A DNA stretch of 64,000 bases from Promethearchaeota archaeon (GCA_048938105.1 JBHLMN010000017.1:64001-128000), one strand, 5' to 3'; counted from the stretch's first letter, positions 28,680-46,924 are shown. Made by a program: numbers and translations. Notes: generated by a model from the sequence alone, not told the origin.

Positions 28680-28913
28680 TCAGAACAACTTTTCGAATTT
28701 GATTGGTGAATTTGTTTCTTGTTTCAGGGATTCGCTGATATTATCGGAGAGATTCTCAAACTCTTTAGCTGAAAGGACTTTTTTTATAAGCAGAAAATCT
28801 TTAATTATCGATAAGTTCAGTTCTACTCCAGCTGTTAATCCTAACTTTTTTCGCAATTCTCGCGGGATAGTAATTCTACCTTTTTCATCAATTGAAACTT
28901 TCATAAATACCAC
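28680..28913 (-). CDS. AbrB/MazE/SpoVT-family antitoxin
   Basis: IDEKGRITIPRELRKKLGLTAG, directly upstream of the PIN gene. Confidence 0.88.
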   Translation of the reverse strand: MVFMKVSIDEKGRITIPRELRKKLGLTAGVELNLSIIKDFLLIKKVLSAKEFENLSDNISESLKQETNSPIKFEKLF

Positions 28914-28962
28914 TAAGTGGGCCGAGGTGGGAATTCATTAAAATTTTTCTGTATGGTCTTAA

Positions 28963-29490: not shown

Positions 29491-30025
29491 GGCGAGTCTC
29501 TCCAGGAGGGTGTCCAAATTCTTTAGAGAAAGCAGTTCTGAACCCACTATTGGACTTATATCCACAATGAGATGGGAGCTTTTTAACCCTCATTCCTTTT
29601 CTGAGTAATTCTTTTGCGTAAGCTAAGCGAAGTTTACGGTGAAATGCCATTGGAGTTAACTGATAATGATTTTTGAAATGCCGTCTAATAGTAGAGATCT
29701 CTACTCCTGAAATCCGAATCAAAGTTTTCTCATCAATTCTCTTTGAAACATTCCTTTTCATATAAGAAAGAACCTTTTCCAACCAATTAGGAACATTATT
29801 GGGAAATAAATCTGGTTTACATCGTTTACAGCTTCGATATCCTGCAACAATTGCTTCTTCTCTCGTTGAAAAGAATACCATGTTTTTCTCCAATGACAAT
29901 CTTGCTTTACATGAAGGAAGACAGAATATTTTCATCGTCCGCACCCCCACATAAAAATATCCATCGTATGAAGCATCACGTCTTATTCGTGCACTAACCA
30001 TTTCTTCATACGTAAGTTTTTTCAT
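29483..30025 (-). CDS. adaA: AdaA-like methylphosphotriester methyltransferase / AraC-type regulator
   Basis: RDASYDGYFYVGVRT.KIFCLPSC...AGYRSCKRCKP (four Zn-ligand Cys) plus AraC HTH (CGYKSNSGFRTAF). ATG 30025 follows AAGGAG. Confidence 0.9.
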   Translation of the reverse strand: MKKLTYEEMVSARIRRDASYDGYFYVGVRTMKIFCLPSCKARLSLEKNMVFFSTREEAIVAGYRSCKRCKPDLFPNNVPNWLEKVLSYMKRNVSKRIDEKTLIRISGVEISTIRRHFKNHYQLTPMAFHRKLRLAYAKELLRKGMRVKKLPSHCGYKSNSGFRTAFSKEFGHPPGETRHV

Positions 30026-30146
30026 GATGAGAACTCCTTTCACGATTATTTTAAACATTGTGCCTATTTTCGAGCAAGTAATTCGATATCACATGAATTC
30101 AGGATTTTCTTTTAATGAATAGAATGTGCAATGTAAAAAAAGATTA

Positions 30147-31532
30147 CTAGTAAATGAACGGAACACCGAGATCGTCAAGCTGCTTACGAATAACTTGATA
30201 AAGATCCAAATATTCTGTTGAAGGCTTGCACCGCTGTACGTCATAACATTCTCGAAAATCTTTACCTAATGGAGCTTTCTCTATCCTATCTTCGTAAGTC
30301 TTGAGAAGAGTAAGAACAAGCTCATTAACATCACTTCTTGACAGTTGCTCTTTTGTTATTCCCAACCCTACTTCAGCAGCCATCCGTGCTTCCAATGGAG
30401 TAGCATAGTTTTTGTGTCTATTTTTTGCAACAGCCATTATCCAGAGATTTGAACCAGAAACAACTGAAGCAAGAGCGTGAGTTGCTGCCTCTCTTAAAAC
30501 CATGGGTGTACATGGTCCAGCAGCAGCATAACTAGCCGATAAAGAGATTAAATTACTGTTACGCGCTAACGCTTGGTAAGTTGTTGTCAATACCCAGAGA
30601 AGCTCCCGTGTTGTATTGCAGGTGTGCTTTAAGTGAAAGGGAAAGTAAACCATGAAATGTGCCTGATTCACAAGTAGACCCATTAAGTGATACGCAAGTC
30701 CAACAATAGCGGTTCCTTCGGGCCCTCCTGCATAACCACCCATAATAGGCCCAGCCAATGCCCCTACGAAACAGCCATAGCTGTGGAAATGTACCATTTT
30801 GTTCAGTAGAGAGTTATTCACTTTTAACTCCGTAATACTTGCCACAAAACGCCCATCAGTCAGTCTCTCTCCCCATTCAGGATTACTTGCTGCAATTTGC
30901 GCAGCATCAGATTCCGCAGTTCCAACACTTTTAAGAAAGATTCCAGGCCGACCCACTCTTCGGGCAGCCTCCCGAAACATCATGGCATGAGAAACAGATC
31001 CCTTTACTTCTGAGGGATATCCTGAGCGAATGGGCATCCCTTCTATCTCATCAAGGATGGGAGCACAGACTCCATCTGCTAGAGGCTCCTGCAAGTAAGC
31101 CATACTCATTGGGACAAAAAGATCTTCATCACAAGTGATGTCAGGTGTGAACATACAGAAAGGCTTTCGAGAATCTGTTATTTGTCGATTTGAAATCTCT
31201 CTCGAATCACGTCCAAATCCTAATGTGAACCTGCCAGGGTAGTTTCCGAGAGCCTCTTTCACCTCTTCTTCTGTAAATAAAACCCTTCTATGAGTATCAG
31301 TCACCAAAGTTCCCACAGTCAGGTAAAGATCTTTTGCAGCGTCCCAAAGATTATCTACTAGAGTATTATCTTCTGGAACTGGTGTTTGGGGATCAAAATG
31401 AATATCATATTCCTTGATAATCCTCCGCAATTCAGGAACTAAGAATTTAAGGTCGAAATCCTTTTCTAAACAAACTGGCCCATTTTGTGCCCTGTCCAGT
31501 ACTTCATTGATACGCCATGGAGGAGTTCCCAT
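30147..31532 (-). CDS. mtmB: Second MtmB homologue, pyrrolysine-free (Lys at Pyl site)
   Basis: GPVCLEKDFD, VGRPGIFLKSVGTA, ELKVN, GPIMGGYAGGPEGTAIV, AGPCTPM, LEARMAAEVG, FRECYDV. ATG 31532 follows GGTGA. Confidence 0.88.
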   Translation of the reverse strand: MGTPPWRINEVLDRAQNGPVCLEKDFDLKFLVPELRRIIKEYDIHFDPQTPVPEDNTLVDNLWDAAKDLYLTVGTLVTDTHRRVLFTEEEVKEALGNYPGRFTLGFGRDSREISNRQITDSRKPFCMFTPDITCDEDLFVPMSMAYLQEPLADGVCAPILDEIEGMPIRSGYPSEVKGSVSHAMMFREAARRVGRPGIFLKSVGTAESDAAQIAASNPEWGERLTDGRFVASITELKVNNSLLNKMVHFHSYGCFVGALAGPIMGGYAGGPEGTAIVGLAYHLMGLLVNQAHFMVYFPFHLKHTCNTTRELLWVLTTTYQALARNSNLISLSASYAAAGPCTPMVLREAATHALASVVSGSNLWIMAVAKNRHKNYATPLEARMAAEVGLGITKEQLSRSDVNELVLTLLKTYEDRIEKAPLGKDFRECYDVQRCKPSTEYLDLYQVIRKQLDDLGVPFIY

Positions 31533-31584
31533 TTTTCTCACCAAATATTTTTTCTTATTCAAAATAAACAGTAGATCTTTTGAT

Positions 31585-32262
31585 TTAGAACCAGACCAAA
31601 ATTTCAGATAATTTCTTTCTTTTTATATCAGGAACGGTTACATCTTCTTTTGGAAATCCAATAGGCATTATAACAAACGCTTTCTCGTTTTTAGGCCGTT
31701 TTAAAAGATTTCGTAGAAAATTCATACTGATAGGTGTGTGTGTTAATGTTGCTAAACCTGCATTATGGATGGCCATGATGAGTATCCCAACAGCAATTCC
31801 AACACTCTTAGTTACGTAATAATTTTTTCGTTTGTTATTGAATTCATCCAAATGATATTTTTGTTGAAAAACAACTATTAGATAGGGAGCTATTTCTAGA
31901 AACGGTTTTCTCCAAGTTGTTCCTAAAGGAGCTAAGTCTTGACGCCACTCCTCTGATATTTTACGTTCGTAAAATTCTTTTTCTTCAAGTTCTGCAGCTT
32001 CTCGGATCTTATGTTTGAGAACAGGATCACTGACAATAACAAATGTCCAGGGTTGTTTATTTGCTCCTGAGGGGGCCGTACCAGCAGTTTTGATAATATT
32101 CTTAATGATTTCTCGTGGAAAAGGCTTATCTGAAAAATCTCGTATTGATCTACGAGAATTGGCAAGATGATACATTTCTTGAGCTCTTCTACTCATATCC
32201 TCCTTGGAATATGTTTGAAAGTGATAGGGAATAAATGGATACTTATTTTCCATTGATCTCAC
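31585..32262 (-). CDS. Iodotyrosine deiodinase-like nitroreductase
   Basis: RRSIRDFS, AGTAPSGANKQPW, lid EEKEFY...LGTTWRKPFLEIAP, SVGIAVG, GLATLTHTP. Confidence 0.88.
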   Translation of the reverse strand: MRSMENKYPFIPYHFQTYSKEDMSRRAQEMYHLANSRRSIRDFSDKPFPREIIKNIIKTAGTAPSGANKQPWTFVIVSDPVLKHKIREAAELEEKEFYERKISEEWRQDLAPLGTTWRKPFLEIAPYLIVVFQQKYHLDEFNNKRKNYYVTKSVGIAVGILIMAIHNAGLATLTHTPISMNFLRNLLKRPKNEKAFVIMPIGFPKEDVTVPDIKRKKLSEILVWF

Positions 32263-32381: not shown

Positions 32382-33980
32382 ATGGATCCCAAAGAAAAAA
32401 GATTTTTATCAGAAATTAGTGATATTTCAGGTCAAAAACTACTAAAAGTCGATAAAGTGGGATATGGAAGAAATGGTTATGTTGAGAAGCGTAATCGTAT
32501 AATAAAATTATCCATTTCCAATCTAAAACTCTATTATATTCCAGAAAGTATAGAGAATTTAAATGAACTAAAAGCTCTTCATATGGGGGGAAATTATCTA
32601 ACTAAAATATCAGACCCGATCCTAACCCTAAGGAATTTGGAAATTCTAGAAGCTTGGGACAATCGGATTGAATCAATTCCTAATGATATTGGAGTTTTGG
32701 AAAAAGTTTGGCGATTACATCTCGCAGGAAATAAAATAACCGAGCTTCCGTTTTCTATTGGTAATCTGCCAATGAAGAAGCTGTATCTCAAACATAACAA
32801 TGTTAGTTATGTTCCCGAAAGTATTGGGAACTGGATAAACCTCGATGTTTTTGGTTTACCTCTCAATAATCTTCCCTCACTACCAGAAACTATTAATGGT
32901 TGGAAAAACGTCCGTGTAATCTCAGTTTGGCAAAATAAGCTTAGAACGTTACCAGATGTTCAACTCAACGTTAAAGAATTACGAATTAATAATAATTATT
33001 TTACAGAAGTACCTCCTCGGGTGTACGAGATCAAACAATTAAGGAAACTTTGGTTGAATAGTAATCAATTGACAGAGATACCAGAAATTCCAAGAGGACA
33101 TCTTCAAAATTTATGGTTTCTAGATTTACAGAATAATCTCCTTTCTACATTACCTAAGTCCCTTCAGCAATTACCTAACCTCCGTGATTTAAGACTCTCA
33201 GGTAACCTATTTGATTCCTATCCAAACTGGTTGGATTCTCTTAAAGGTTATAAAGTTGATACCACGACTCATAAGCGACAAGTAAAACAACCAGATTATA
33301 TTGGAGTCAAGAAATATGTGAAATATCTTGAAGATAATCACTTACCAATAGAACACTTAGTAGAGATCAAGCGACTCCAGAGATATCTCGAGAATGAGAA
33401 AGGTTTCTCCAGAATTGTGAAAGCAAAGGCTGATGATGTTAAAGATTATATTGCACAAGGAGGTATCACAGCTTTTGCATTGAGATCTCTATATCTATAT
33501 TTCTCTTGGCTTCAGGATTATCCATTACGTCGAATTATCAAAGAAGAATTAGAGAATTTTGCACAGATAATGAGTATCAATCTTCAAGATGTCAGAAGGC
33601 TTGTTGAGGAATCACAGGTTGTGACATCATTATTAACAGTAGACGGAATAGAAGAAAAGACTCCTAATATTGTTTCTCAACCACCACAAGTTGTAGAGAA
33701 AATTGAGGGGGATGAATGGGAGTCTTTCAAAACCAAACTAGATAAAACATCTATAAAAGCGTTAGAAATTCTCTTAAAGGCTTCAAAACCTAAAAACGCA
33801 CTTAAAAAATTCGCTGATGGCCAAAACAGACTCCCAGAAACCCTTCTTGAATCTATTAATGAATTAGCATTGGAAATGATTGGTGATCTACTCATTGACC
33901 AAGAGACCTGTCAAATCACAGAAGTTAATTATAGAGAGAAATTACTTGAAATTTTCTTTAGAAAAGGGAAAGTAGAATAA
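32382..33980 (+). CDS. Leucine-rich-repeat protein with C-terminal TerB_C-like domain
   Basis: About 10-11 LxxLxLxxNxLxxLP repeats. C-terminus INLQDVRRLVEESQVVTSLL...LPETLLESINELALEMIGDLLID parallels the C-terminus of the next gene. Confidence 0.85.
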   Translation: MDPKEKRFLSEISDISGQKLLKVDKVGYGRNGYVEKRNRIIKLSISNLKLYYIPESIENLNELKALHMGGNYLTKISDPILTLRNLEILEAWDNRIESIPNDIGVLEKVWRLHLAGNKITELPFSIGNLPMKKLYLKHNNVSYVPESIGNWINLDVFGLPLNNLPSLPETINGWKNVRVISVWQNKLRTLPDVQLNVKELRINNNYFTEVPPRVYEIKQLRKLWLNSNQLTEIPEIPRGHLQNLWFLDLQNNLLSTLPKSLQQLPNLRDLRLSGNLFDSYPNWLDSLKGYKVDTTTHKRQVKQPDYIGVKKYVKYLEDNHLPIEHLVEIKRLQRYLENEKGFSRIVKAKADDVKDYIAQGGITAFALRSLYLYFSWLQDYPLRRIIKEELENFAQIMSINLQDVRRLVEESQVVTSLLTVDGIEEKTPNIVSQPPQVVEKIEGDEWESFKTKLDKTSIKALEILLKASKPKNALKKFADGQNRLPETLLESINELALEMIGDLLIDQETCQITEVNYREKLLEIFFRKGKVE

Positions 33981-34260
33981 TTTTCTTATATAGCTTTTTC
34001 ATCTTATGAACATATTATAAACCTTTTTAAATGACTTCTCATCCAAAGCTCAATCATTAGTGTCAATTAATATATGTTTTCACACTCTAGATACTGTTTG
34101 GAGTTATTCTGATATTGAAGAAGGTGTGTAATAATATTATAAACGTGCTATTGTATTATCCTCTTATTAAATATTATTCTCTTACCGACTCTGAATAACT
34201 TACACACAGGAGTTGTTGAGATAAGAAGAATTAAATGAGTTGTACAGGTAGCATCTTTCG

Positions 34261-37200
34261 ATGTCAACAGCTATAACAATCGTTACGATGAAGGCTAGAG
34301 ATAAAGAACAGAAAATAGGAGACGCTCCATTAAGAATTCCAAAAAGATTCACAGATGTTTTTCCTGTGAAAACAAAAACAGTTATTATGGCTTGTCAAGG
34401 AAATTATACCCCTGAAATAGGAGATTATATATCTTTTCAGCTTTCTTCTGAAGACTCCTTAACCCACAAAGAATCTTCAGCTGAATTGTTTGTTCAAATT
34501 GATAAAATAACCTCATTTGAAAAAATATTATCTACTGATATTACTCAAGAGGAAATCGGATCAATTCTCGAAAGTTCTCCGAAGAGAATGGTTTGGATAG
34601 AAGGAATTGTCCTTGGATACTATTCTCCAAGTCGAAAAAGAATTTTAATGCCAAAAAATTCCCTTATAGGAATGATAGGAGAATTTACTGATTCAGAATC
34701 TATTAAGATTTTTATAAACCTGTATATGGAATGTCTATTTCGCACATTCCCCCTTAAACTAATAAATTATTTAGTCTATAACTCAATCCAAGGAAGTCAG
34801 TTTTGTCAAAAAGGTAATAACAAGCTTTTAGAAGAAGTGATTCCTAAAATCCTAAAGAACATCGATGACTATTTCTTAAAGACAGAAACTAAAGATCTTC
34901 TTAATGTATTTACACAACAAACGAATTTTACCATTTCGAAAGAAACAGAAGATATTAATGATATCAAACATGAATATATTAATTGGCTTGCTTCTAATAA
35001 ACCAATGGTCGATTTCATAACTGATATATTGAAATATACTGAGAAAAAATTAAGTTTAATATTAAAATACCGAGGGAAGGTGGAAGTAAATCCAAGGCCA
35101 CTTAATAGTCATATCAGAAAAATAATTCAAACAGAACTTAAAAAATATGAAACAGGAGTACACCCAAAAAGGGAGACAAATCTAAAACAGCCAGTTTTTG
35201 CTGAATTTGAAATTGGATTCAGTCCCGAACAACAAGTCAAAATATCGGTCATAGAACCCGAATTGCAATCTAAGGTCAGGAAAACCGATCGGAAACCAGA
35301 CTCCATCAAAACCAATGAAAAGCGAGAAGATATTCGTGAACTTGAAGCTAAGATGAAACTCGCTGCTCATTCTCTGGACTTTAAAAAAGCATCCAAAATT
35401 CGAGAGAAAATTGAAGAAATAAAAAAAGAAAATATCGATAGAGAAATAGAAAAACAGCCTTCTGATTTTGAGGCACCTTCAGCAAAGAAACTTCTTAGAA
35501 CACCCAAATTCGTACCATTCGATCAATACTGGCCAACCTTAGATACAATGAATGAAGATCAAAGAAATTGGTACGATTATTGGGTGTCAGAAGCCGAAAA
35601 TGGACATTATTATCCGACTGATATATCTTATATTTTCTTATATATCTATCAAACACTTGATTATGAAGATAAAGAAAAAGGGTATCGTACATTACGAGAT
35701 ATTTGGATCCATTATCGGAGAGAACATCCCAAACTGGATCGGTACTTGATTGATTGGATAACAGACTATGTCCTTCTTCATAAATGCCATTATGATCAAA
35801 GGACTATACTAAAGGAATTAATCAAATTTCACTCAAAATACACAGTCGAATGTCTTGATTCTATATTAACATTATTCCCCCCTCGCTCATTTAAAGAAAT
35901 GCCTATAGATTGGATTGATGTTCTGGCAAATAATAGTATCAAAAGTAGTTCATTTTATATGTCGAAGCCCAATGTCATGAACACAATAATCCCTGAAGTA
36001 CTTGATGCAATTGATCGATATTACCATGAGAATGAAAATATAGGTTTATTAGAGAAATTTAAACCCGATAAAGTTACACGGTTCGTCTTTGATCGTGCCC
36101 TCAAGGATGAAAGTTATCTTACTAAGACTATTGAAGTTTTATCTTACACAAAATCCCTATCTCTTCTTGTTTTCATCTCTGAGGTTGTAAGAACAACAGA
36201 GACTAAACTCCGTAAGTACTATCGTTTTCCAGCCCTTCCTCATATTTGTATATTAGAAAGAGAAATTGAAAAAGTAATTGAAACCACTTTTACGAAGTTT
36301 ATCAGTGAGTTGAGTTTAACCGAAGGTGAAACACAATTATCCTTCATCGACGCAGCGCAAAAATATGTTAATAGAGTCGAGAATGAACCTGAAAAAAAAC
36401 CGAAATTGTACCAGTTTCAACCTAATTATCAAGATATGACTAAATCTCAATTGAAATGGTATTTCTATTGGCGTAACCAGGTTAGGAACGGAAATTTTCT
36501 CCCTACTCAAATTGGATACATTATATTGTATATCTATGAAATAATCAATGATATTGGAATTCAAAATCATCAAGAGGGTTATAAACGACTATCAGCAATC
36601 TGGGAATATTACCGTATCGATAATCCCGAGTTAGACGAATATTTCCCTGAATGGATAGCGGAATATGCGATTCTAAATCAAATACCTGTTGATAATCTCG
36701 AAGAACTCTATTATAAGATTTTAAATAGATTAGATAGAAGAGAACAAAGAGATCTTCGATATGAATTAACAGAACTTTTACTTTCTCAATACAAACATGA
36801 AGCTTTTAATAAAATTCCAATCAAAATGATTTATGAGCTTGTTGGTTATACAAATTTTCTCCCCTATACACGATTAAATGACACAGTTCGAAATACGATA
36901 GATCAGCATGTAAATACAATACTAAATGAAGTAAATTCTTACTATTTACAAAAGTACAAAAAAGGATTGCTAGATTGCTTCAGTCCAACCAAAAAACGGA
37001 GAATCCCCTTTGTTCTTGCTCGATATTTTGGTGACACTGATATATTAGAGGTAAAAGGTTACTCACGGCAATTTTTGAATTTTTTAGACAATATAATAAG
37101 ATTTATCCAGAATCGATTCCGTGATATTGAATTAGATACAACTAAAACCCGATTGAAGGTTGTTATTCCCGATCCTGAAGTTGAAGCACTAATTGATTAT

Positions 37201-37710
37201 TATTTCATTGACAACCTAAATGCCACAAACATCATGCCTAAATATTCAAAGATTGCATTACAGGTTCAAAGTGGCAATTTAGGCGTGGATCAATCTAAAA
37301 TAAAGGCTTTAACCGAGGAATCCGAGGAAATTCAATCCCTCTTAACAACCACCGAGATTGAGCAGGAAGAAGCTCTACCAGAGTTAGAAATGATTCAAAT
37401 AGAAATTAAAAAACCAATTAATAAAGAATCTGTTCAGGAAGCAGAAACAAGCGAATCAGATGAGTTGGAGCTGTTTCGATCAAGATTGACTGATCTCCAA
37501 TTAGAAGTTTTGAGGATCTTAATAGTCAGTAAAAAGCCAAAAGAACAGTTAGACCAACTAGCAGAACAAACGGGTACTTTACCAGAAGCAATGATAGAAT
37601 CCATTAACGAAATCGCGCTTGAGATAATAGATGATATCATAATTGATTCTGAACTTCTCAACATTATTGATGAGTATTTGGATAGGATAAAGACGATTAT
37701 CAAGATATAA
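34261..37710 (+). CDS. Shango SngA-like protein (two TerB_N-like units + TerB_C) with N-terminal HAS-barrel-like and UVR modules
   Basis: YWPTLDTMNEDQRNWYDYW...DISYIFLYIY and FQPNYQDMTKSQLKWYFYW...QIGYIILYIYEIIN. C-terminal LPEAMIESINEIALEIIDDIIID. UVR-like ELEAKMKLAAHSLDFKKASKIREKI. Confidence 0.8.
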   Translation: MSTAITIVTMKARDKEQKIGDAPLRIPKRFTDVFPVKTKTVIMACQGNYTPEIGDYISFQLSSEDSLTHKESSAELFVQIDKITSFEKILSTDITQEEIGSILESSPKRMVWIEGIVLGYYSPSRKRILMPKNSLIGMIGEFTDSESIKIFINLYMECLFRTFPLKLINYLVYNSIQGSQFCQKGNNKLLEEVIPKILKNIDDYFLKTETKDLLNVFTQQTNFTISKETEDINDIKHEYINWLASNKPMVDFITDILKYTEKKLSLILKYRGKVEVNPRPLNSHIRKIIQTELKKYETGVHPKRETNLKQPVFAEFEIGFSPEQQVKISVIEPELQSKVRKTDRKPDSIKTNEKREDIRELEAKMKLAAHSLDFKKASKIREKIEEIKKENIDREIEKQPSDFEAPSAKKLLRTPKFVPFDQYWPTLDTMNEDQRNWYDYWVSEAENGHYYPTDISYIFLYIYQTLDYEDKEKGYRTLRDIWIHYRREHPKLDRYLIDWITDYVLLHKCHYDQRTILKELIKFHSKYTVECLDSILTLFPPRSFKEMPIDWIDVLANNSIKSSSFYMSKPNVMNTIIPEVLDAIDRYYHENENIGLLEKFKPDKVTRFVFDRALKDESYLTKTIEVLSYTKSLSLLVFISEVVRTTETKLRKYYRFPALPHICILEREIEKVIETTFTKFISELSLTEGETQLSFIDAAQKYVNRVENEPEKKPKLYQFQPNYQDMTKSQLKWYFYWRNQVRNGNFLPTQIGYIILYIYEIINDIGIQNHQEGYKRLSAIWEYYRIDNPELDEYFPEWIAEYAILNQIPVDNLEELYYKILNRLDRREQRDLRYELTELLLSQYKHEAFNKIPIKMIYELVGYTNFLPYTRLNDTVRNTIDQHVNTILNEVNSYYLQKYKKGLLDCFSPTKKRRIPFVLARYFGDTDILEVKGYSRQFLNFLDNIIRFIQNRFRDIELDTTKTRLKVVIPDPEVEALIDYYFIDNLNATNIMPKYSKIALQVQSGNLGVDQSKIKALTEESEEIQSLLTTTEIEQEEALPELEMIQIEIKKPINKESVQEAETSESDELELFRSRLTDLQLEVLRILIVSKKPKEQLDQLAEQTGTLPEAMIESINEIALEIIDDIIIDSELLNIIDEYLDRIKTIIKI

Positions 37711-37734
37711 ATACCTAAAGGACGCATTGTAACA

Positions 37735-39066
37735 ATGTCAAAGAAAAGAATCCCACAACGTGTATCAGCTACAATTCTAAAATCCTTGAGTGCTGGAGTG
37801 GTACCCCGTATAGGTCTAGAACATATTGCTGTAGGTCGAAAAGAGGAAATAGAATCATTATTGGAAGATTTGGAAAATATTGAGGTAGGAAGCGCAGCTT
37901 TTCGATTTTTTATTGGACGATATGGATCTGGTAAGAGTTTCTTAATTCAGTTGCTAAGGAATTATGCGATGGATCGTGATTTCGTTGTTGCTGATGTTGA
38001 TTTATCCCCAGCTCGACGATTCATTGGCGGGGGAAATAAAGGCGTTGCTACATATCGTGAACTTATTACAAATATGTCCACAAAAACACGTCCTAGTGGT
38101 GGAGCATTAACAGCAATCTTGGAAAAATGGATCTCCAAAATTCAATCCATGGTAATCACTGAAAAAGGGATCAAACTTCAAGATCCTGTTTTTGTGGATT
38201 TGGTGGAAACAGAGATAATTAATGCTGTAAACAACATCAAGGACTTAGTTCATGGGTTTGATTTCGCAACAGTTATCTCAACATACTGGCGTGGGCACAA
38301 ACTTGGTGAGGAAGAAACGAAAGAAAATGCTCTTAGATGGTTACGAGGGGAATATACCACAAAAACAGAGGCACGAAACGCTATAACAAATGTTAGTGTC
38401 ATTGTCGATGATGATTCATGGTACGATTATATCAAGTTAATGGCGCGATTTGTCACTGAAATTGGATATAAAGGACTATTAGTGTTTTTTGATGAGGCTG
38501 TGAACCTTTATAAGATCACCCATACTCAATCAAGAACCAATAATTATGAGAAACTTTTAACAATGTATAACGACACCATGCAAGGAAAAGCTGAGTACAT
38601 TGGAATTTTTGTTGGTGGTACACCTCAATTTCTCGAAGATCGAAGGAGAGGCCTCTATAGCTATGAAGCACTACATTCACGTCTTGTTGAGAGTCGGTTT
38701 ACCAAAAATGGATTACGTGATATTTCAGGCCCTGTCATTAAGCTAGAACGTTTATCCTTAGAAGAGATTTTTGTACTATTAACTCGTGTTATGAACATTC
38801 ATGCCCTCCACTATAAATATGAAGCTAATTTAACAAATGATGAACTTCAAGAATTCATTAAAATAATAGTTAGCCGAATTGGGGCCGATAAACTGCTTAC
38901 TCCACGAGAATTTGTCCGAGAATTTATTATTTTATTAAATATCCTTCGGAGGAACCCAGAAAAATCCTTTTTAGGATTAATTCAAGGAGAAGATTTCAAA
39001 CCACAAGCTCCAAGCCAAGTAGAGGAATCCGTTAAAGGAACAGAATATGAGGAATTTACCTTATGA
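37735..39066 (+). CDS. DUF2791/BrxD-family P-loop ATPase (Shango SngB-like)
   Basis: SLSAGVVPRIGLEHIAVGR, Walker A GRYGSGKS, NALRWLRGE, Walker B LVFFDEAVNL, GLYSYEALHSRL, LTPREFVREF. Confidence 0.9.
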   Translation: MSKKRIPQRVSATILKSLSAGVVPRIGLEHIAVGRKEEIESLLEDLENIEVGSAAFRFFIGRYGSGKSFLIQLLRNYAMDRDFVVADVDLSPARRFIGGGNKGVATYRELITNMSTKTRPSGGALTAILEKWISKIQSMVITEKGIKLQDPVFVDLVETEIINAVNNIKDLVHGFDFATVISTYWRGHKLGEEETKENALRWLRGEYTTKTEARNAITNVSVIVDDDSWYDYIKLMARFVTEIGYKGLLVFFDEAVNLYKITHTQSRTNNYEKLLTMYNDTMQGKAEYIGIFVGGTPQFLEDRRRGLYSYEALHSRLVESRFTKNGLRDISGPVIKLERLSLEEIFVLLTRVMNIHALHYKYEANLTNDELQEFIKIIVSRIGADKLLTPREFVREFIILLNILRRNPEKSFLGLIQGEDFKPQAPSQVEESVKGTEYEEFTL

Positions 39067-41297
39067 GTGATGCTATTTTCAATCGTTTTCCTGCATTTAT
39101 TCAAGAATGGATTTACTCGCATGGATGGGAGGAATTACGTGAAATTCAGGTTGCTTCTGCAAATGTAATTTTTAATACAAACGCTCATGTATTGTTGGCA
39201 ACTGGAACTGCCAGTGGGAAAACGGAAGCAGCTTTTTTTCCTGCATTAACATTGATTTATGAAGATCCTCCTGCAAGTATTGGTATCCTTTACATCTCAC
39301 CCTTGAAAGCTTTAATTAATGACCAATTTAATCGCATAGAGGAGTTGTTAGAAGAAGCAGAGATCTCCACTTGGCCCTGGCATGGAGATATTCCTCGAAA
39401 TCTGAAAAGAAAATTACTCGAAAATCCTAATGGAGTTCTTCAAATTACGCCTGAATCTATGGAAAGTTTACTAATAAATAGACACCAAGATCTTCGGAGA
39501 ATGTTTGGAGATCTTCGATTTGTGATAATAGACGAAGTACACGTTTTTATGAATGCAGAGAGAGGAACTCAAATCCTATGTCAATTAGAACGTCTTGGAA
39601 ACATCATTGGATATCATCCCCGTCGTATAGGTCTGTCAGCAACTTTAAGCGATTATAGCTCTGCAGAAAAGTGGTTAAGTTCAGGAACAACCATTTCAAT
39701 TAATACTCCGAAAGTACAAGGATTAATCAAAAGAATTAGATTGGCTGTTGAGAATTTCATTGATCCTAATCCGAACCCTGCTGGAATAATGCAGTATGGT
39801 GAAGGGGGCGAATTAGTTGCCCCAGCTTCAGAACCCTCTTCCGAACCATATCCCTCAAATATGTATTTATTTGATCAAACGTTAAATGTTCAGTGTTTAA
39901 TCTTTACTAACACCCGAGAACGAGCGGAAAGCACAATTAATGCCCTTAGGGCAATTGCTGATCAAAAACGATATCCAAATAGGTACTATGTTCATCATGG
40001 GAGTATTTCTGCTTCTCTAAGGGAGGAAGCTGAATCAATTATGAAAACTGGAGACATCCCTTCTGTTACGGCATGTTCTGTTACGTTGGAATTAGGCATT
40101 GATATTGGATCCTTGGAAAGAATTATTCAGATTGGATCCCCACGAACAGTATCCAGTTTTTTACAACGGCTAGGCCGATCAGGTCGAAAGGAAAAAGATG
40201 TTTCTGAAATCCTTTTCATTCATTCGGAAGAAGAACCTTCGGATAACAAACCATTACCTTACTTGATACCTTGGGAATTGATTCAATCTGTAGCAATCAT
40301 CAATCTTTATTTAGAAGAACGCTGGATTGAACCAATACAAGAGTTAAAATCTCCATTCAGTTTATTATATCACCAAACAATGTCTTCTCTGGCATCTGCA
40401 GGTGAACTCTCTCCTCAATCTCTTGCTCAACGAGTACTCTCCTTGACACCATTCAAGTATGTCTCTCAAGAAGAATATCGAACTCTTATTCATCATCTTA
40501 TAGAATTGAATCATATTGAACAAATTGAAGATGGAGGATTAATTGTAGGCCTTGATGGTGAACGAATTGTTCGAAACTATCGATTTTATGCGGTCTTTCC
40601 TGATGTGGTAGAGTGGACGGTGAAGAACACAGAAGAATTTGATGAGATAGGTAAAATTGGGCAATTATTTCTACCAGGTGATCGGTTTCCCCTAGCAGGA
40701 TATACCTGGGAGGTTAAAGAAATCTATCCTGATCAAAAGGTGATAATTGTATCGAAAGTTGGTGGTCGAACCCGATATTTCTGGCCTGGAGGGATTGCCC
40801 CTGTTCATACTAAAATCCTTCAGAAGATGCGAAAAATCCTGTTTGAAGAAAAGATTTATCCTTACTTACAACCTGGTGCTGTTGAACGAATTCAACAGGT
40901 TAGAACATTAGCCAGAGAAGTAGAAATGGATAGACAAGTCCTTTTTCAGCTTGCTGGTCATAAATTTGTACTTCTACCTTGGGCTGGATCAATTTCGTTT
41001 CGAACAATTAGAAGAATATTGGAATTACATTCTGAAGAATTAGGGATCAGAAGTATTAGCGAACAGTCTCCCTATTTCTTTTTATTTGAAGCGGAAGACC
41101 AATCAAGAGATAGTCTTGAATCAGAGATCAAAAGATTATGTAACAGAATTGAATCACCTGCTGAGCTTATCAAAGAGGATGAAATTTTTGTCTGGCGGAA
41201 ATTTGATCAATTTATCCCGACTGATCTCCAACAACAGACATTAATGAATGACTACTTAGACTTGAAAGAAGTCAAAAGCATTATTAAGAACTGGTGA
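39063..41297 (+). CDS. Lhr-like DEAD/DEAH helicase, copy 1 (Shango SngC-like)
   Basis: TGTASGKTEAA, SPLKALINDQ, ITPES, DEVH, GLSAT, HHGS, TLELGIDIG, QRLGRSGR. ATGA overlap with the ATPase. Confidence 0.92.
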   Translation: MSDAIFNRFPAFIQEWIYSHGWEELREIQVASANVIFNTNAHVLLATGTASGKTEAAFFPALTLIYEDPPASIGILYISPLKALINDQFNRIEELLEEAEISTWPWHGDIPRNLKRKLLENPNGVLQITPESMESLLINRHQDLRRMFGDLRFVIIDEVHVFMNAERGTQILCQLERLGNIIGYHPRRIGLSATLSDYSSAEKWLSSGTTISINTPKVQGLIKRIRLAVENFIDPNPNPAGIMQYGEGGELVAPASEPSSEPYPSNMYLFDQTLNVQCLIFTNTRERAESTINALRAIADQKRYPNRYYVHHGSISASLREEAESIMKTGDIPSVTACSVTLELGIDIGSLERIIQIGSPRTVSSFLQRLGRSGRKEKDVSEILFIHSEEEPSDNKPLPYLIPWELIQSVAIINLYLEERWIEPIQELKSPFSLLYHQTMSSLASAGELSPQSLAQRVLSLTPFKYVSQEEYRTLIHHLIELNHIEQIEDGGLIVGLDGERIVRNYRFYAVFPDVVEWTVKNTEEFDEIGKIGQLFLPGDRFPLAGYTWEVKEIYPDQKVIIVSKVGGRTRYFWPGGIAPVHTKILQKMRKILFEEKIYPYLQPGAVERIQQVRTLAREVEMDRQVLFQLAGHKFVLLPWAGSISFRTIRRILELHSEELGIRSISEQSPYFFLFEAEDQSRDSLESEIKRLCNRIESPAELIKEDEIFVWRKFDQFIPTDLQQQTLMNDYLDLKEVKSIIKNW

Positions 41298-43579
41298 GGG
41301 ACCTGGCCTCAGCTCAATTTTATCGACTTGCTCCATGGATTCAAGAGTGGATTTATAGACAACAATGGGAGGTTTTTAGACCAATTCAAGAAGAGGCCTG
41401 TAAAGTCATTTTCGATACTCCTCATCATCTCCTATTAGCAACTGGAACTGCCAGTGGGAAGACCGAAGCTGCATTATTTCCTATCCTGACTCTATTAGAT
41501 CAAAATCCTTCTGCAACTATTGGTGTTTTATACATTGGACCATTAAAAGCTCTTATTAATGATCAATTCCAGCGAGTTGAAGATCTCCTCCGAGAAGCGG
41601 ATATAAAAGTTTGGCGTTGGCACGGAGATGTACCACAGAGCTACAAAACCAAATTAGTTCGAAATCCAAACGGATTACTGCAAATCACTCCAGAATCATT
41701 AGAAAGCTTGTTGATTAATCGCACAACTGATTTACGTAGACTCTTTGGTGATTTAAGATTCATCATTATTGATGAAGTACATGCATTCATGCCTCAACTA
41801 TCGGATCGCGGAAGACAAGTAATTTGTCAACTTGAGCGGCTTCAAGAGTATATTAACCAAATTCCTCGGCGAATTGGACTCTCTGCTACACTTGGTGATT
41901 ATTCCTATGCTGAATATTGGCTTGCTTCAGGTACAAATTTCCCTGTTATAACTCCTATAACCAACGAACCCTCAAAGAAACTTCGACTTAGTATTGAACA
42001 TTTCACTGAAACAACATGGCATCGAGCAAAGATGAGAGGTCAACCCCCACCACGTGGCCTTGACCTTCCATCACATAGATGGATCTTTGATTTAACTTTA
42101 GGAAGAAAATGCATAATTTTCCAGAATGATAGAGAAAGAACTGAGCTAGTAACTCATGGATTGAGAGAAATCGCTAAATCAAAAGGATTACCAGATGTAT
42201 ATCACTCGCATCATTCATGTATAGCAGGTTTACTTAGAGAAGATGCGGAGGAGTTTTTGAAAGAAAAGAACGGGGTTCCTCATGTTGTTGCAGCAACTAT
42301 GACATTAGAGCTAGGCATTGATATATCTGATGTTGAAAGGATTATCCATGTTGATAGCCCTCATGCTGTCTCCACATTTGTACAACGTTTGGGAAGATCT
42401 GGTCGAGTAAATAACGCGTCAGAGATGTTTTTTGCTGTTTCTGAGAATCCTAAATCTCCTCGTACGCCTCTTGCATATCAACTCCCTTATCGATTATTGC
42501 AAGCCATAGCAGTTGTCCAACTCTATCTTGATGAACGATGGATTGAACCAGCACTCCCACTTAAGAAACCGTTTTCAATTTTATTTCACCAAACCATGTC
42601 GATTCTAGCTTCCGCTGGTGAACTCTCTCCTCAAGCGTTAGCTCAAAGGGTATTATCACTTTCTCCTTTCAAGAATATTACTCAGCCTGAATTTCGCGTA
42701 TTGTTAAACTACCTTATTAATAATGAGTATATTGAGCAAATTCAAGATGGTGGCTTGATTCTTGGACTAGCTGGAGAGAAGATAGTCCGAAACTACCGTT
42801 TTTATGCGGTATTTCGAGACTATGCGGTAGATTACTCAGTGAAGGAGGGGACGCGTGAGATTGGCCATATTGAACAACTACTCGAACCAGGTGATCAATT
42901 ATTAATTGGGGGGTATCCTTACCGAATAACTCAAGCTTATCCTAAACAAAAACTCATGCTAGCTGAAAAGATATCGGAAAAACCATTATATGTGTGGCCA
43001 GGGAGAATCGCTCCTGTACATACTAGAGTAGTTCAACGAATGCGACGTTCTCTCTTTGAGGAAAAATCTTATTCATTCCTTCAGAGAGGTGCACGAATTC
43101 GTCTGGAAGAAGGCCGATTATTTGCTAAAAAGCATCAATTAGATAAAAGGGTCTTATTAAAAGAGTCAAAAAACAGATATAGCCTACTACCATGGATGGG
43201 ATCCACACCGTTTAGAACACTTCTTCGTATATTAAAATTTCTGGGTCCTAACACCTTAGGGATAAATTGGGTGCAACCTGAACCTGTAACAACAACGGAT
43301 CCCCATCTTCCAGTCCATGTTATTCAATTTGAAACCAGTAGTTATAATAACGCCAATTCGCTTTATAATGACCTATACAAACTAGTAGAAAACGTTTCAG
43401 AGAAAGAGCTACACCAACTATATGATCAGTCTGAAAAATTCATTTATGAAAGATATCACCACTTATTACCAGTAGAATTACAACGGGAGGTATTAATTCA
43501 TAATTATCTGGATCTTAAAGAGGTAAAGAGTGTTATTCGTACGTGGGAGGATTATTCTATTTATTGGCAAACAGATTAA
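41294..43579 (+). CDS. Lhr-like DEAD/DEAH helicase, copy 2 (Shango SngC-like)
   Basis: Same motif set (TGTASGKT, DEVH, GLSAT, TLELGIDI, QRLGRSGR). GTGA overlap with copy 1. Confidence 0.92.
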   Translation: MRDLASAQFYRLAPWIQEWIYRQQWEVFRPIQEEACKVIFDTPHHLLLATGTASGKTEAALFPILTLLDQNPSATIGVLYIGPLKALINDQFQRVEDLLREADIKVWRWHGDVPQSYKTKLVRNPNGLLQITPESLESLLINRTTDLRRLFGDLRFIIIDEVHAFMPQLSDRGRQVICQLERLQEYINQIPRRIGLSATLGDYSYAEYWLASGTNFPVITPITNEPSKKLRLSIEHFTETTWHRAKMRGQPPPRGLDLPSHRWIFDLTLGRKCIIFQNDRERTELVTHGLREIAKSKGLPDVYHSHHSCIAGLLREDAEEFLKEKNGVPHVVAATMTLELGIDISDVERIIHVDSPHAVSTFVQRLGRSGRVNNASEMFFAVSENPKSPRTPLAYQLPYRLLQAIAVVQLYLDERWIEPALPLKKPFSILFHQTMSILASAGELSPQALAQRVLSLSPFKNITQPEFRVLLNYLINNEYIEQIQDGGLILGLAGEKIVRNYRFYAVFRDYAVDYSVKEGTREIGHIEQLLEPGDQLLIGGYPYRITQAYPKQKLMLAEKISEKPLYVWPGRIAPVHTRVVQRMRRSLFEEKSYSFLQRGARIRLEEGRLFAKKHQLDKRVLLKESKNRYSLLPWMGSTPFRTLLRILKFLGPNTLGINWVQPEPVTTTDPHLPVHVIQFETSSYNNANSLYNDLYKLVENVSEKELHQLYDQSEKFIYERYHHLLPVELQREVLIHNYLDLKEVKSVIRTWEDYSIYWQTD

Positions 43580-43651: not shown

Positions 43652-44911
43652 TTATGTTAAACGTTTAAGTTTCTCTAATACTATGTAGTAGGCTTTTTTT
43701 TCTAATTCTTCAAGTAATATGCTTTTACCATTTAAGAAGAAGTCAATAATATAGGGATGAGCTGCTTGAGGAATGCTTAATTTCTTGAATTCGCTTTTAT
43801 CCAACTCATAGACATCTTCAGGATGTTTTTCTAGAAGCCCAGCAGCTTTGTTTAATTGGTATGTTTCACCAGAAGATTTCTCTCGAATAATATTTGAGTC
43901 TACGTAGGCTGCTCTCATTAAGATTTCAACAAGTCGGAGATTATTTTCAATCCGTCCAGGGGGAATATAACGCCTAGCAGTATAGGGAAGTTTGAACTCG
44001 TGATTAAATTTGTATGCTTTTACTTCTGGATAAATGAGATTGAATTTTTTTAATTGAAAATGATCTAATGTCCCATATTTGTTATTATTGCCGTATAACT
44101 GGCGATATTTAGATAATAAATGAGGATAATGTTTTTGGATTGTACGAAAAAACCCATTCTTATTTCTCCCAGGTTTTAAGGTTAAAGACCACACATAAAC
44201 AAACTCTGCACCAGTTTTTTTCGCTTTTTGAAATAGTAAATGCATATTTTCATCTGTATCCCCAATAAATGGTAAAGGGGGATAAAAATATACCCCTGAA
44301 TGAATCCCTTCTTCTCTTAGTTTCTGAATTGCTTTAAAGCGTTCAGAGGTTGTGCTTGCGTTGGGTTCAAAAATTCTTTGAGCATCTTCGTCCGCTAATG
44401 TAATACTGAAATTTACTGCTGCATATGTTTTCTCATTTATCTTCTTAAATAAGTCTAGATCTCTCAGAACAAGTGCACTTTTTGTTAATATTTGTACAGG
44501 AACATTGTACATATAAGCAAGGTGTAATAAGGTTCGAGTCATCTTCACCTGTTTCTCTGCAGGTTGATAAACATCGCACACCCCTCCTCCAATAAACAGG
44601 ATGAAAGTTGGTTTGGGGGATCTTTTTTTTATTTTTAGATGGTCATCCAAGGTGGAACCTGATATCATTCCATGCTGTTTTAAAAATCGTTCAAGTAAGT
44701 GAGGAGCATTCCTTTTGACACGGATACGATTACCAAAGTCCTCATGCATGTGGTATACTTCAGATTTACCATCACAATACTGACAATCGTGATAGCATCC
44801 TTGATAAGGATTTAGATAGTATTCCGTCCAAGAGAAAAGTGAAGGCGAACTTTTACGCATCAGAGTCTTGGCATTATACTCTTCTACTATCATTGGGTAC
44901 TCACGTGTCAT
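43652..44911 (-). CDS. Radical SAM protein (SplB/Rv2578c-like DNA-repair family)
   Basis: LNPYQGCYHDCQYC (CxxxCxxC), DVYQPAE, ILTKSALVLRDLD, FEPNASTTSERF. Confidence 0.88.
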   Translation of the reverse strand: MTREYPMIVEEYNAKTLMRKSSPSLFSWTEYYLNPYQGCYHDCQYCDGKSEVYHMHEDFGNRIRVKRNAPHLLERFLKQHGMISGSTLDDHLKIKKRSPKPTFILFIGGGVCDVYQPAEKQVKMTRTLLHLAYMYNVPVQILTKSALVLRDLDLFKKINEKTYAAVNFSITLADEDAQRIFEPNASTTSERFKAIQKLREEGIHSGVYFYPPLPFIGDTDENMHLLFQKAKKTGAEFVYVWSLTLKPGRNKNGFFRTIQKHYPHLLSKYRQLYGNNNKYGTLDHFQLKKFNLIYPEVKAYKFNHEFKLPYTARRYIPPGRIENNLRLVEILMRAAYVDSNIIREKSSGETYQLNKAAGLLEKHPEDVYELDKSEFKKLSIPQAAHPYIIDFFLNGKSILLEELEKKAYYIVLEKLKRLT

Positions 44912-45007
44912 TTAAGAATAGCTAAATTGAATAAAGAATCTCTTGTTTTAATAATTTGATCCCTGATTAGCCATTATTTTCTTCCTGATTTTATTGGGAT
45001 TAAGTAA

Positions 45008-45703
45008 TTATAACCCTGAGATTTCTTTTTTGAGGAGAATGAAAACTTCATTGAAATGTTCCTTATATTTAGGATTAATTTCATTAATCATTTTAAGAAA
45101 ATCGTACAGTACTCCCATATCTAACTTTTCTTTCGCAATTATGTCTTCATGATCTACTAACCAGTTACCTAATACCTTGTAATATTGCTGTTTAGTTTCT
45201 AATAGTTTTTGTGGTAAATTTGAATAATCCTTAGGAAGAGATAATTCTAAAATATTAGCAAATTTTTGAAATTCATTGAATCGTTTAGTATAACTTTCGA
45301 AACTAATTTTTTCACTCCCAACGAAAAGATTTCGTGCCACACGTCCAAAATACTTAACTTTATTGCGTCCATGAGGCCCTTTCTGCAACGTAGCTACAAC
45401 TTTGATTAATCCAATTTCTTGGAGAGTATCTAAGTGAAAATAAAGATTCGTCGAACTCATAACAATTTCTTTTCTTTTCTCTAATAATTCTTTGATTTCA
45501 ATCACATTAAGCGCATGTCGCATCACAGATCTTCCATCTGGAGACATCTCTTCTATTCCTTCTCTTAATAGCTTAACAATTTCACTTTTCACTGGATGGG
45601 AATAGTATTTATCTTTAGGAACGTCTATATATGCGAAGGAGGGGATCTTATCCCAATGATCAAATAGTAGCTGATGCTTGTTAGTCATTTTAGGATCACT
45701 CAT
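45008..45703 (-). CDS. Winged-HTH (ArsR-like) transcriptional regulator
   Basis: HPVKSEIVKLL...TNLYFHLDTLQEIGLIKVV...KYFGRVA. Divergent from the AKR operon. Confidence 0.75.
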   Translation of the reverse strand: MSDPKMTNKHQLLFDHWDKIPSFAYIDVPKDKYYSHPVKSEIVKLLREGIEEMSPDGRSVMRHALNVIEIKELLEKRKEIVMSSTNLYFHLDTLQEIGLIKVVATLQKGPHGRNKVKYFGRVARNLFVGSEKISFESYTKRFNEFQKFANILELSLPKDYSNLPQKLLETKQQYYKVLGNWLVDHEDIIAKEKLDMGVLYDFLKMINEINPKYKEHFNEVFILLKKEISGL

Positions 45704-45795
45704 AAATTATTTCATTCTTTAATATATGGAAGGCTTATTATTGGTTTTTTATACTCTTCAGTTAGCCACATTCGAAAACTATATATCAGATTTTA

Positions 45796-45853
45796 CGTTT
45801 CAAATTGAACTTGAAATAAATTTCTAAACGCTTCAAGAAGGGCTTGAAACGTT
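45796..45853. promoter_or_regulatory. Two tandem palindromic operator sites (YTTCAA-N7-TTGAAA)
   Basis: TTTCAA-attgaac-TTGAAA (45798-45816) and AACGCTTCAAG-aaggg-CTTGAAACGTT (45827-45853), 33 bp apart, in the divergent promoter region. Confidence 0.7.
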
Positions 45854-45892
45854 CCATTTTACTTTAGAATCAGCTAGGGAAGATAATCAAGA

Positions 45893-46921
45893 ATGAAATT
45901 ATACACAAGAAAATTGGGTAAGAGTAATATCAAAGTTAGTGCAATGGGAATGGGTTGTTTTGCGATTGGAGGACCTTTTAAGAATGAGGATGGTCGTCTT
46001 TTTGCCTATGGAAATGTAAATGATCAAGAATCAATAGAAACAATACATAAGGCTTTGGAAATTGGAGTGAACATATTTGACACTGCCGAGGCTTATGGAC
46101 AAGGTCATAGTGAAGAAGTGCTAGGCCTGGCTTTAAAAGGTAGGAGAGACGACGTTGTCATCGCAACTAAATTCAGGAGTGTATATGACCCAAAAAAGCA
46201 AACAAATGTTGATAAAAAAATTATTCTAGATAAATTGCAAGATTCTGTTAATAAAAGCCTGAACAGATTACAAACAGATTACATAGATATTTATCAGTTA
46301 CATAATTCTCGTCAAGATCCTTCAAGTGCTTTATTAATCAGGGATTGTCTAGAAGAATTAGTAGATGAAGGAAAAATTCGTTATTATGGTTGGAGTACAG
46401 ATGATCCCAATCGAGCAAAAGAGTTTGCTAAAGAAAAGCATTGTGTGGCATTACAGTATGTTTTAACGCTTACTCGGATAAATACACCGATAGCAGAATT
46501 GTGTGAAGAAAATAACTTGGCAGGGATTATTCGGAGCCCCTTCGCAAGTGGAACTTTAACAGGAAAATACACCAGAGACACTAAGCGTAGTTCAGATCAT
46601 ATGTTATCAGAAGTTGATTTTAACACTAAGCGTTATATTAAAACATTCCAGGCTTTAGACCAGTTGAAAGAGTTATTAACGGAACATGGTCGGACTTTAG
46701 TTCAAGGAATTCTTGGATTTATTTGGACGAAGAATGATCGTGCTATTCCTATTCCAGGAGCAAAAACAGTTGACCAAATAACTGAAAACGCGAAGTCTCT
46801 GGAATTAGGCCCCATTTCACAGCAATTAATGAGTGAAATTGATTCAATATTCTCAGATTTGCAGCTAGATTTCTCTTATGATAATTTTACTTACTATAAA
46901 GAAAATAAAAAGGACAGATAA
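45893..46921 (+). CDS. Aldo/keto reductase
   Basis: RKLGKS, FDTAEAYG, IATKF, LQTDYIDIYQLH, PIPGAKT. Confidence 0.93.
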   Translation: MKLYTRKLGKSNIKVSAMGMGCFAIGGPFKNEDGRLFAYGNVNDQESIETIHKALEIGVNIFDTAEAYGQGHSEEVLGLALKGRRDDVVIATKFRSVYDPKKQTNVDKKIILDKLQDSVNKSLNRLQTDYIDIYQLHNSRQDPSSALLIRDCLEELVDEGKIRYYGWSTDDPNRAKEFAKEKHCVALQYVLTLTRINTPIAELCEENNLAGIIRSPFASGTLTGKYTRDTKRSSDHMLSEVDFNTKRYIKTFQALDQLKELLTEHGRTLVQGILGFIWTKNDRAIPIPGAKTVDQITENAKSLELGPISQQLMSEIDSIFSDLQLDFSYDNFTYYKENKKDR

Positions 46922-46924
46922 TCC

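Follow-up and report, generated by a model that had tools for sequence, protein, structure and literature searches.

An expanded Asgard variant of the Shango system carries a leucine-rich repeat protein that ends in TerB_C

The stretch of DNA analysed here, called the window throughout, comprises 64,000 nucleotides (nt) from a Promethearchaeota archaeon (GCA_048938105.1, JBHLMN010000017.1:64001-128000) and belongs to a 5.85-Mb assembly of 65 contigs. Its central part is occupied by a block of five genes on the plus strand which constitutes a real, lineage-specific and expanded variant of the Shango system with an added subunit, a leucine-rich repeat (LRR) protein ending in TerB_C. The gene for this protein (P0001; 32382-33980, 532 amino acids (aa)) was identified from its open reading frame (ORF) and its Pfam and PADLOC matches, as was the sngA-like gene that follows it (P0002; 34261-37710, 1149 aa). 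Downstream of these are sngB (37735-39066, 443 aa), which encodes a BrxD-type AAA+ ATPase according to PADLOC and Pfam; sngC1 (39063-41297, 744 aa), encoding an Lhr/BrxHI-like superfamily 2 (SF2) helicase according to PADLOC; and sngC2 (41294-43579, 761 aa, GTG start), the product of which is a paralogue of SngC1 by PADLOC and BLASTP. Gaps of 280 nt and 24 nt lie between the LRR gene and sngA and between sngA and sngB, respectively, while sngB and sngC1 (39063-39066) and sngC1 and sngC2 (41294-41297) each overlap by 4 nt. An initial annotation of this DNA had described five co-oriented genes with the last three joined by such overlaps, and the ORFs lie exactly so.

The core of the block scored as Shango in the PADLOC and Pfam scans that the same annotation had proposed. 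PADLOC scores ranged over 330-748 bits, with 329.7 bits for P0002 on the SngA model, 621.1 for SngB, and 748.3 and 697.8 for SngC1 and SngC2 respectively on the SngC model, and the window holds a SngA-type TerB protein, a SngB with Walker motifs and a SngC, all adjacent and co-oriented. The order sngA-sngB-sngC is identical in all related loci. SngB matches the Pfam family BrxC_BrxD (formerly DUF2791) with 546.5 bits, and its Walker A (GSGKS; G64, S65, G66 and K67) and Walker B (DEA; D253 and E254) motifs are invariant in the family alignment. The two helicases are 50% identical to each other (BLASTP); each has the Pfam domains DEAD, Helicase_C and WH_Lhr, and the motifs GTASGKT, DEVH, SAT and QRLGRSGR are present in both. 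The closest solved structures to SngC are the Lhr chains 5v9x and 7lhl, together with MrfA/YprA. A tightly linked AAA+ ATPase and Lhr-like helicase likewise make up the BrxD-BrxHI pair of type 2 BREX (bacteriophage exclusion; Pgl), and SngB does match BrxD (167 bits with PADLOC, 170 bits with NCBIfam) just as SngC matches BrxHI (387 and 362 bits). However, the SngB model scores three to four times as high as BrxD and the SngC model about twice as high as BrxHI, BREX has no TerB_C-bearing input proteins, and PglZ, PglX, BrxC and PglW were all missing from the 20 flanking ORFs scanned (26770-32262, 43652-48007 and ten others).

Protection against phages by Shango has been demonstrated for systems of E. 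coli and P. aeruginosa (10.1101/2022.11.11.516204, 10.1101/2022.05.11.491447), and Shango is already listed among the systems enriched in Asgard archaea (PMC11291487). By its resemblance to these systems the present cassette would have a defence function in this archaeon as well. It has the three families, the gene order, the overlapping frames and the intact motifs of bacterial Shango (Millman et al. 2022; Johnson et al. 2022/2023), but it has two helicase paralogues instead of one, a much elaborated SngA, an LRR-TerB_C gene upstream and an archaeal host. The SngA-like protein of 1149 aa, for which the PADLOC model has 528 positions, consists of a lineage-specific head (1-350), a UVR motif (358-390), two TerB_N domains (~415-520 and 686-815) and TerB_C (994-1143); in Pfam it scores 146.9 bits for TerB_N (two domains) and 48.9 bits for TerB_C and also matches the UVR motif. 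Relatives of the head (~aa 1-400) were found only within the same Asgard clade, and this region (1-350/400) gave neither a Pfam nor an atlas match. A literature search for LRR-TerB_C proteins or for this Shango architecture returned no description, so the earlier statement that no such variant had been described still stands for the architecture, Shango in Asgard archaea itself having been reported.

P0001 is built, from its N-terminus, of an N-cap, about 11 LRRs, a helical bundle and TerB_C. The LRR region (aa 40-290; 32499-33251, plus strand) was delimited by Pfam, an AlphaFold2 model and a motif count. It matches LRR_4/LRR_8 with 67 bits; ten repeats fit an LxxLxLxxNxL-type pattern with a spacing of ~23 aa and one more probably lies at aa 40-62, and in the model of the whole protein the solenoid has a regular strand-helix pattern with a predicted local distance difference test (pLDDT) score of 80-94. 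The TerB_C module (aa ~394-532; 33561-33977, plus strand), placed by Pfam, hhalign and a model, comprises a helix, a variable acidic linker (421-443) and a winged-helix-like end (444-527). This end is compact, with pLDDT >90 for residues 445-520, in a model of the C-terminal half (m7916348c7867; 124-sequence alignment, mean pLDDT 79). Against the Pfam family (PF15615) the module scores 32.1 bits over residues 395-520, the cut-off being 26.3, and 35.6 bits in the genome scan. The tail carries the family motif W...L...INExAxxxxGD, with the near-invariant W, L, I-N, A and D kept, and it is 34% identical to the tail of P0002 over 116 aa (BLASTP, E 9e-14); when residues ~394-532 were compared with SngA C-termini, hhalign gave 99.2% (E 3e-19). 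On the strength of these sequence matches the tail is a genuine TerB_C that shares ancestry with the one in the neighbouring SngA, and the proposal that the two proteins end in the same module is sustained. Residues 307-524 also match the C-terminal part of the PADLOC SngA model with 57.3 bits. Homology of the whole C-terminal half (307-532) to SngA was considered, as the PADLOC alignment covers it, but was rejected since profile-profile comparison supports only ~394-532.

The helical bundle that precedes TerB_C (aa 307-400; 33300-33581, plus strand) was defined from the C-half model and a VIA-align fold comparison and has no Pfam match. Its predicted fold is similar to that of the core-binding (SAM-like) domain at the N-terminus of tyrosine recombinases (Z 9.0-9.1 over 81-82 aa, root-mean-square deviation 2.1-2.2 Å, to 3nrw, XerD and XerA), at a level that helical models reach by chance. 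Its top eight fold matches are seven recombinases and the Ndc10 DNA-binding domain, such Z values being common for helical models, and a recombinase-like identity of the predicted bundle is a lead only. The end of the tail (444-527) has a weak winged-helix likeness to MarR/ArsR regulators, ORC/Cdc6 and nucleotide-binding LRR (NLR) proteins (Z 6-7), again a common level for helical models; a Foldseek search with the tail model gave no significant match.

Only one Asgard genus has the LRR-TerB_C fusion. Among 5.8 billion proteins searched, 15 clusters had the architecture of P0001, at 73-92% identity, and the other matches were generic LRR proteins. When aa 290-532 were compared exhaustively with 1.84 billion representatives, one LRR-TerB_C cluster and a fragment were recovered; the remaining 112 matches were proteins of 77-1256 aa that aligned solely at their extreme C-terminus, and no other TerB_C protein with LRRs was found in this set. 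One of the closest LRR relatives, the Promethearchaeota protein P0021, has LRRs together with a TIR domain, and LRR modules may thus serve other immune-type proteins of Asgard archaea.

Within this genus the gene is tied to Shango. SngB is present in 11 of 399 genomes of the phylum and in seven of the 21 species genomes of the genus, a patchy spread of the kind seen with accessory genes. The search of Asgard genomes for linkage suggested by the initial annotation located the LRR-TerB_C tail in six of these seven genomes, whereas all 14 genomes of the genus without SngB lacked it. Wherever a contig extends far enough, the LRR gene is found upstream of sngA in the same orientation. The two are immediate neighbours, 0.28-0.55 kb apart, in the window and in loci L005 and L013-L017; they are 1.5 kb apart in L003, with two small opposite-strand ORFs between; and ~6 kb apart in L011, L012 and L053, with three opposite-strand genes between. 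No target-site duplications were found around the DNA inserted between the two genes. To the right of the block a radical SAM gene is kept in four genomes, and the left flank varies (nitroreductase/MtmB, glyceraldehyde-3-phosphate dehydrogenase, Yip1 or CxxCxxCC); that the five genes remain together although the left flank differs is, we consider, more telling than the co-occurrence counts. In genome G074 (L054, 14446-16441) the genes for the nitroreductase and the radical SAM enzyme stand next to each other to one side of the cassette, and in the window (31585-32262 and 43652-44911) they flank it; either the five-gene block moved as a unit or these two genes moved around it. An empty site sought in the Shango-free genomes of the genus was not found, and the flanks are not shared in more distant species.

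LRR-TerB_C homologues lying apart from sngA-sngB-sngC would have argued against such a tie. They were looked for and none was found, the sole apparent exception being an assembly artefact. This is CP070760.1, in which the LRR gene appears 260 kb from sngB; the record consists of small contigs joined by 100-N spacers, with breaks 48 nt beyond the end of the LRR gene, immediately ahead of the SngA tail and within sngC2, and its gene distances are therefore uninformative on linkage. The same record (L004/L010/L020; G001 = G067) is a seemingly closed 3.16 Mb made of few-kb contigs in arbitrary order, with a completeness of ~70%.

These data bear on one alternative, that the LRR-TerB_C protein is an independent factor binding DNA or nucleoprotein, which stands beside Shango because it arose there when the 3' end of sngA was partially duplicated. 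The likeness of residues 307-400 to core-binding domains and of 444-527 to winged helices would suit such a role, as would the separate transcription unit that the gene probably forms (see below). The fold scores, however, lie in the range common for helical models, and the gene is never seen without the Shango core in the genomes of the genus; it has kept its place before sngA despite three insertions and at least four different left flanks, and elsewhere TerB_C proteins are encoded directly before sngB. This strict association with the core makes an independent role less likely, and we regard it as quite improbable.

The variant appears to have been assembled in steps. All of the 80 SngB loci nearest to that of the window, drawn from 185,579 species genomes, belong to bacteria (Paenibacillus, Nostoc, Deinococcota, Clostridia and others), with 50-60% identity. 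They have a single TerB_C protein apiece, of 364-1503 aa where uncut by a contig end, and at most one SngC; neither a second helicase nor a second TerB_C ORF was found within 10 kb in any of them. In the SngC tree all ten sequences from Asgard archaea group together (support 100) with a Caldilineaceae sequence as sister (95), and the second helicase copies form one clade (100) nested within this Asgard group. SngC1 is nearer to bacterial SngC, and bacterial SngC always scores best against SngC1. Given this nesting, the helicase was duplicated once, within the Asgard lineage. We had considered whether there is one helicase for each TerB_C protein, but G059, of the same genus, and G283, of another family, have both paralogues and no LRR-TerB_C, so the duplication predates the LRR gene and is independent of it. 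Because these two genomes carry two helicases without that gene, the events took place in the order of entry into the Asgard lineage, helicase duplication together with the long SngA, and then gain of LRR-TerB_C in one sub-lineage. The direction of entry was probably from bacteria to Asgard archaea, given that the nearest sampled relatives are all bacterial; the tree was midpoint-rooted. Whether the P0001 tail was copied from that of the resident sngA or acquired from elsewhere was also considered, and a tree of 133 tails decides for neither, the LRR clade standing on a long branch.

Some of the related loci depart from the Shango layout. In Nostoc and other cyanobacteria (L083, L085-L098 and L100) the gene preceding sngB encodes a TerB_C protein of 444-477 aa that is dissimilar to the rest of the window's SngA, and no SngC-like helicase scoring above 100 bits follows sngB; these loci may have a different helicase or be a two-gene variant. 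In another Asgard family, L051 (G130) has a 578-aa TerB_C protein and a SngB (49% identity), followed by three large genes on the opposite strand and without a SngC match, which looks like a different TerB_C/SngB system within the phylum.

The non-coding region between the LRR gene and sngA (33981-34260, plus strand) is itself conserved. Alignments of six loci show 82-86% column identity, above what would be expected from the synonymous divergence of the genes, and in loci with other DNA (0.25-6 kb) after the LRR gene these 280 nt stay attached to sngA. A 24-nt block within it, AAGGTGTGTAATAATATTATAAAC (34121-34144, plus strand; alignment columns 41-64), is invariant bar one T-to-A change in L054 and contains the TATA-like sequence ATTATAAA, some 120-130 nt before the sngA ATG. 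A TATA-like box at that distance from the ATG implies a long conserved leader or regulator sites. The region 33981-34260 gave no Rfam match, no covariation support and no conserved small ORF. It probably holds the promoter and leader for sngA-sngB-sngC1-sngC2, and since it stays with sngA, and several genomes have other DNA between this gene and the LRR gene, the latter is probably transcribed as a separate unit. The earlier view of a five-gene system headed by the LRR gene needs correcting in this respect, as that gene is probably not the first of one operon.

All five genes are under purifying selection. Pairwise Nei-Gojobori ratios of nonsynonymous to synonymous substitutions (dN/dS) across six loci were 0.12-0.21 for the LRR gene, 0.15-0.22 for sngA, 0.03-0.06 for sngB and 0.04-0.075 for sngC1 and sngC2, dS being similar for all five (0.4-1.7, mostly 0.6-1.1). 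The LRR gene is therefore a maintained, functional gene. Analysed by domain, the LRR part has a ratio of 0.12 and both TerB_N domains 0.10; the two TerB_C tails evolve faster (0.19-0.25, with 0.19 for the SngA C part), and the SngA head (0.30) and UVR linker (0.46) evolve fastest of all. In the LRR region, 140 of 251 columns are invariant.

How the added protein might couple to the core is suggested by TerB_C itself. Of 74 TerB_C proteins of 200-1000 aa, 73 match TerB_C, 22 TerB_N, ~15 coiled coils, one FHA and one rubredoxin, and TerB_C always lies at the very C-terminus. In the one such context examined, L056, a protein of 294 aa with TerB_C as its sole Pfam match is encoded directly before sngB with a 4-nt overlap. 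Varied heads, together with a TerB_C-only protein before sngB, argue that TerB_C is the constant part next to the ATPase, and that the heads attached to it can be exchanged. Other bacterial TerB_C proteins without TerB_N (L056 and the TerB_C-only ORFs among the 80 loci) share with P0001 the C-terminal module and are encoded directly upstream of sngB, but there the TerB_C protein is the only one of its system, whereas here LRR-TerB_C accompanies a full SngA.

This evidence from gene order makes docking of P0001 on SngB a reasonable guess beforehand, though still not proof. The predicted complex of SngB with P0001:290-532 had an ipSAE (interaction prediction score from aligned errors) of 0.60 (runs 0.58-0.64), against 0.00 for the best of three controls; partner pLDDT was no lower than 71, and 66% or more of the contacts agreed between runs. 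In calibration, the mark for this score was reached by 58 of 80 solved complexes and by two of 110 mismatched pairs, and values of 0.60 or below by only seven of the 80 solved complexes plus both mismatches that reached the mark. The claim that the LRR protein docks on the ATPase thus gains from a predicted contact that the controls lack, but the prediction is graded as weak.

The same contact would fit equally well with another explanation, in which LRR-TerB_C is a regulator or decoy that competes with SngA for its site on the ATPase and helicase, or pairs with the SngA tail, and the machine is held off, or tethered to a host structure through the LRRs, until a signal releases it. The two tails are homologous and could share one site, the LRR part is strongly conserved, as it would be for a constant host ligand, and the LRR gene is probably transcribed separately and is dispensable for the core. 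Nothing, however, points specifically to inhibition, and a shared site is not implied by tails that are only 34% identical and whose relative origin is not settled by the tree. We consider a regulator, decoy or tether less likely than a sensor but a serious rival, as the conserved LRR surface would suit a constant host ligand no less than a conserved viral one.

On balance we favour the reading that the block is an Asgard-specific Shango subtype in which the LRR-TerB_C protein is a second adaptor or sensor that couples through TerB_C. A number of points weigh against it. The score of the predicted SngB complex falls in the weak class, in which most predictions are wrong unless the pairing was likely to begin with, and a search by sequence for solved relatives of SngB or TerB_C found none. 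In Pfam, TerB_C is described as a predicted metal-binding domain and not as a docking one. A literature search on the mechanism of Shango, even in bacteria, found no mechanistic paper. The six genomes with the LRR gene are close kin, so that the counts are not independent and the co-occurrence may reflect one gain of the five-gene block followed by inheritance. The two-helicase Shango of G059 and G283 lacks the LRR-TerB_C gene, which is thus dispensable for the core, and the spacing of 280 nt here and 0.55-6 kb with opposite-strand genes elsewhere indicates that it is not needed in cis. Finally, no diversifying selection was seen on the LRR surface, where a dN/dS of 0.12 is unlike that of arms-race receptors; the proposal of an alternative sensor in the initial annotation accordingly finds slight support, since the LRR part is strongly conserved and bears no sign of an arms race.

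With a second adaptor or sensor as the favoured role, a mechanism can be outlined from the BREX pair. BrxD and BrxHI are a tightly linked ATPase and helicase, with BrxD proposed to load or activate the helicase, and BrxD-type ATPases are ORC/Cdc6-like AAA+ proteins with no DNA-binding or regulatory domains of their own (PMC12839542). By analogy, SngB would be a motor ATPase that works with SngC1 and SngC2 and loads or activates these helicases on invading DNA. The input subunits would be the long SngA and the separately transcribed LRR protein, in which the LRRs and a small helical domain replace the TerB_N part, and the TerB_C tail would act as a common plug that joins these different input heads to the SngB/SngC machine. 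As an adaptor or sensor, the LRR protein would bind a conserved protein ligand, viral or host. Because of the weak fold matches of the TerB_C end, we also speculate that its winged helix would supply in trans the domain that is absent from the ORC/Cdc6-like SngB.

NLR/STAND (signal transduction ATPases with numerous domains) receptors and Avs/bNACHT systems likewise associate an LRR module with an ATPase-driven immune machine, and the TerB_C end weakly matches the winged helices of plant NLRs and the Drosophila apoptosome (Z 6.2-6.8, a common level). However, the LRR here is on a separate polypeptide, and the effector is a helicase pair and not an oligomerising death domain. None of the five proteins matches the STAND NTPase family (NACHT, NB-ARC). 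What remains of the parallel with eukaryotic innate immunity drawn in the initial annotation is an LRR protein beside an ATPase machine; with a BrxD-type AAA+ ATPase and the LRRs on their own polypeptide, it is an analogy only. More tentatively still, it is possible that TerB_C is a general plug for interchangeable heads and that this cassette represents the first Shango to have two different input subunits, of which one would be a cytoplasmic LRR protein for pattern recognition, with an NLR-like division of labour achieved by separate polypeptides.

The genes around the block are metabolic or concerned with repair: two MtmB paralogues, ada, ogt, a PIN protein, a nitroreductase, a radical SAM enzyme and aldo-keto reductases. 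No other defence genes were present among the flanking ORFs scanned, and the locus is not a defence island. Both MtmB-like genes (26770-28158 and 30147-31562) are full-length, without an in-frame stop, and their products are ~43% identical to each other; they flank the PIN gene and the ada/ogt alkylation-repair genes, an arrangement kept in L011. Further upstream, on the minus strand (13921-18036), is a gene for a 1371-aa protein with a Bmp/PnrA-like substrate-binding domain and many NosD/beta-helix repeats, a homologue of which lies at the edge of L011. At 24063-25101 a Roadblock/LC7 gene stands directly before a gene for a Ras/Roc/Arf-like small GTPase, and this pair is also found in L011. 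Pairs of Roadblock/LC7 and Ras-like GTPase genes are typical of Asgard archaea. Homologues of P0001 come solely from metagenome-assembled genomes labelled Heimdall-, Hod-, Prometh- or Thorarchaeota, and these labels, with the gene pair on the contig, bear out the assignment of the DNA to an Asgard-type archaeon.

The neighbourhood could also be taken to mean that the cluster is a module for DNA repair or maintenance, made up of an Lhr-type helicase and an ATPase loader, with the LRR protein linking it to cell structures. Lhr-family helicases do work in DNA repair, the nearest solved relatives of SngC are Lhr and MrfA/YprA, and the block lies near ada and ogt with no other defence genes flanking it. 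Set against this, the Shango models fit the three core proteins with far higher scores than any other model does, bacterial Shango protects against phages (10.1101/2022.11.11.516204, 10.1101/2022.05.11.491447), the ada/ogt neighbourhood is not kept in other genomes, and presence in seven of the 21 genomes of the genus fits an accessory gene set. We give a repair module little credence and retain the view of the block as an Asgard Shango subtype with a second, LRR-based adaptor or sensor.

A natural variant in which LRRs replace TerB_N while TerB_C is kept, and which stands beside a normal SngA, separates the tail from the head and so offers a direct handle on whether TerB_C docks and on what the heads sense. 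It also shows how a cassette of bacterial affinity has been rebuilt in an Asgard lineage, with a helicase duplication and a new SngA head, and then with a new subunit. LRR proteins are rarely tied to prokaryotic defence machines; the LRR-TerB_C protein adds an example from the archaea most closely related to eukaryotes and bears on how LRR-based recognition is recruited to immunity, here by analogy and not by ancestry.

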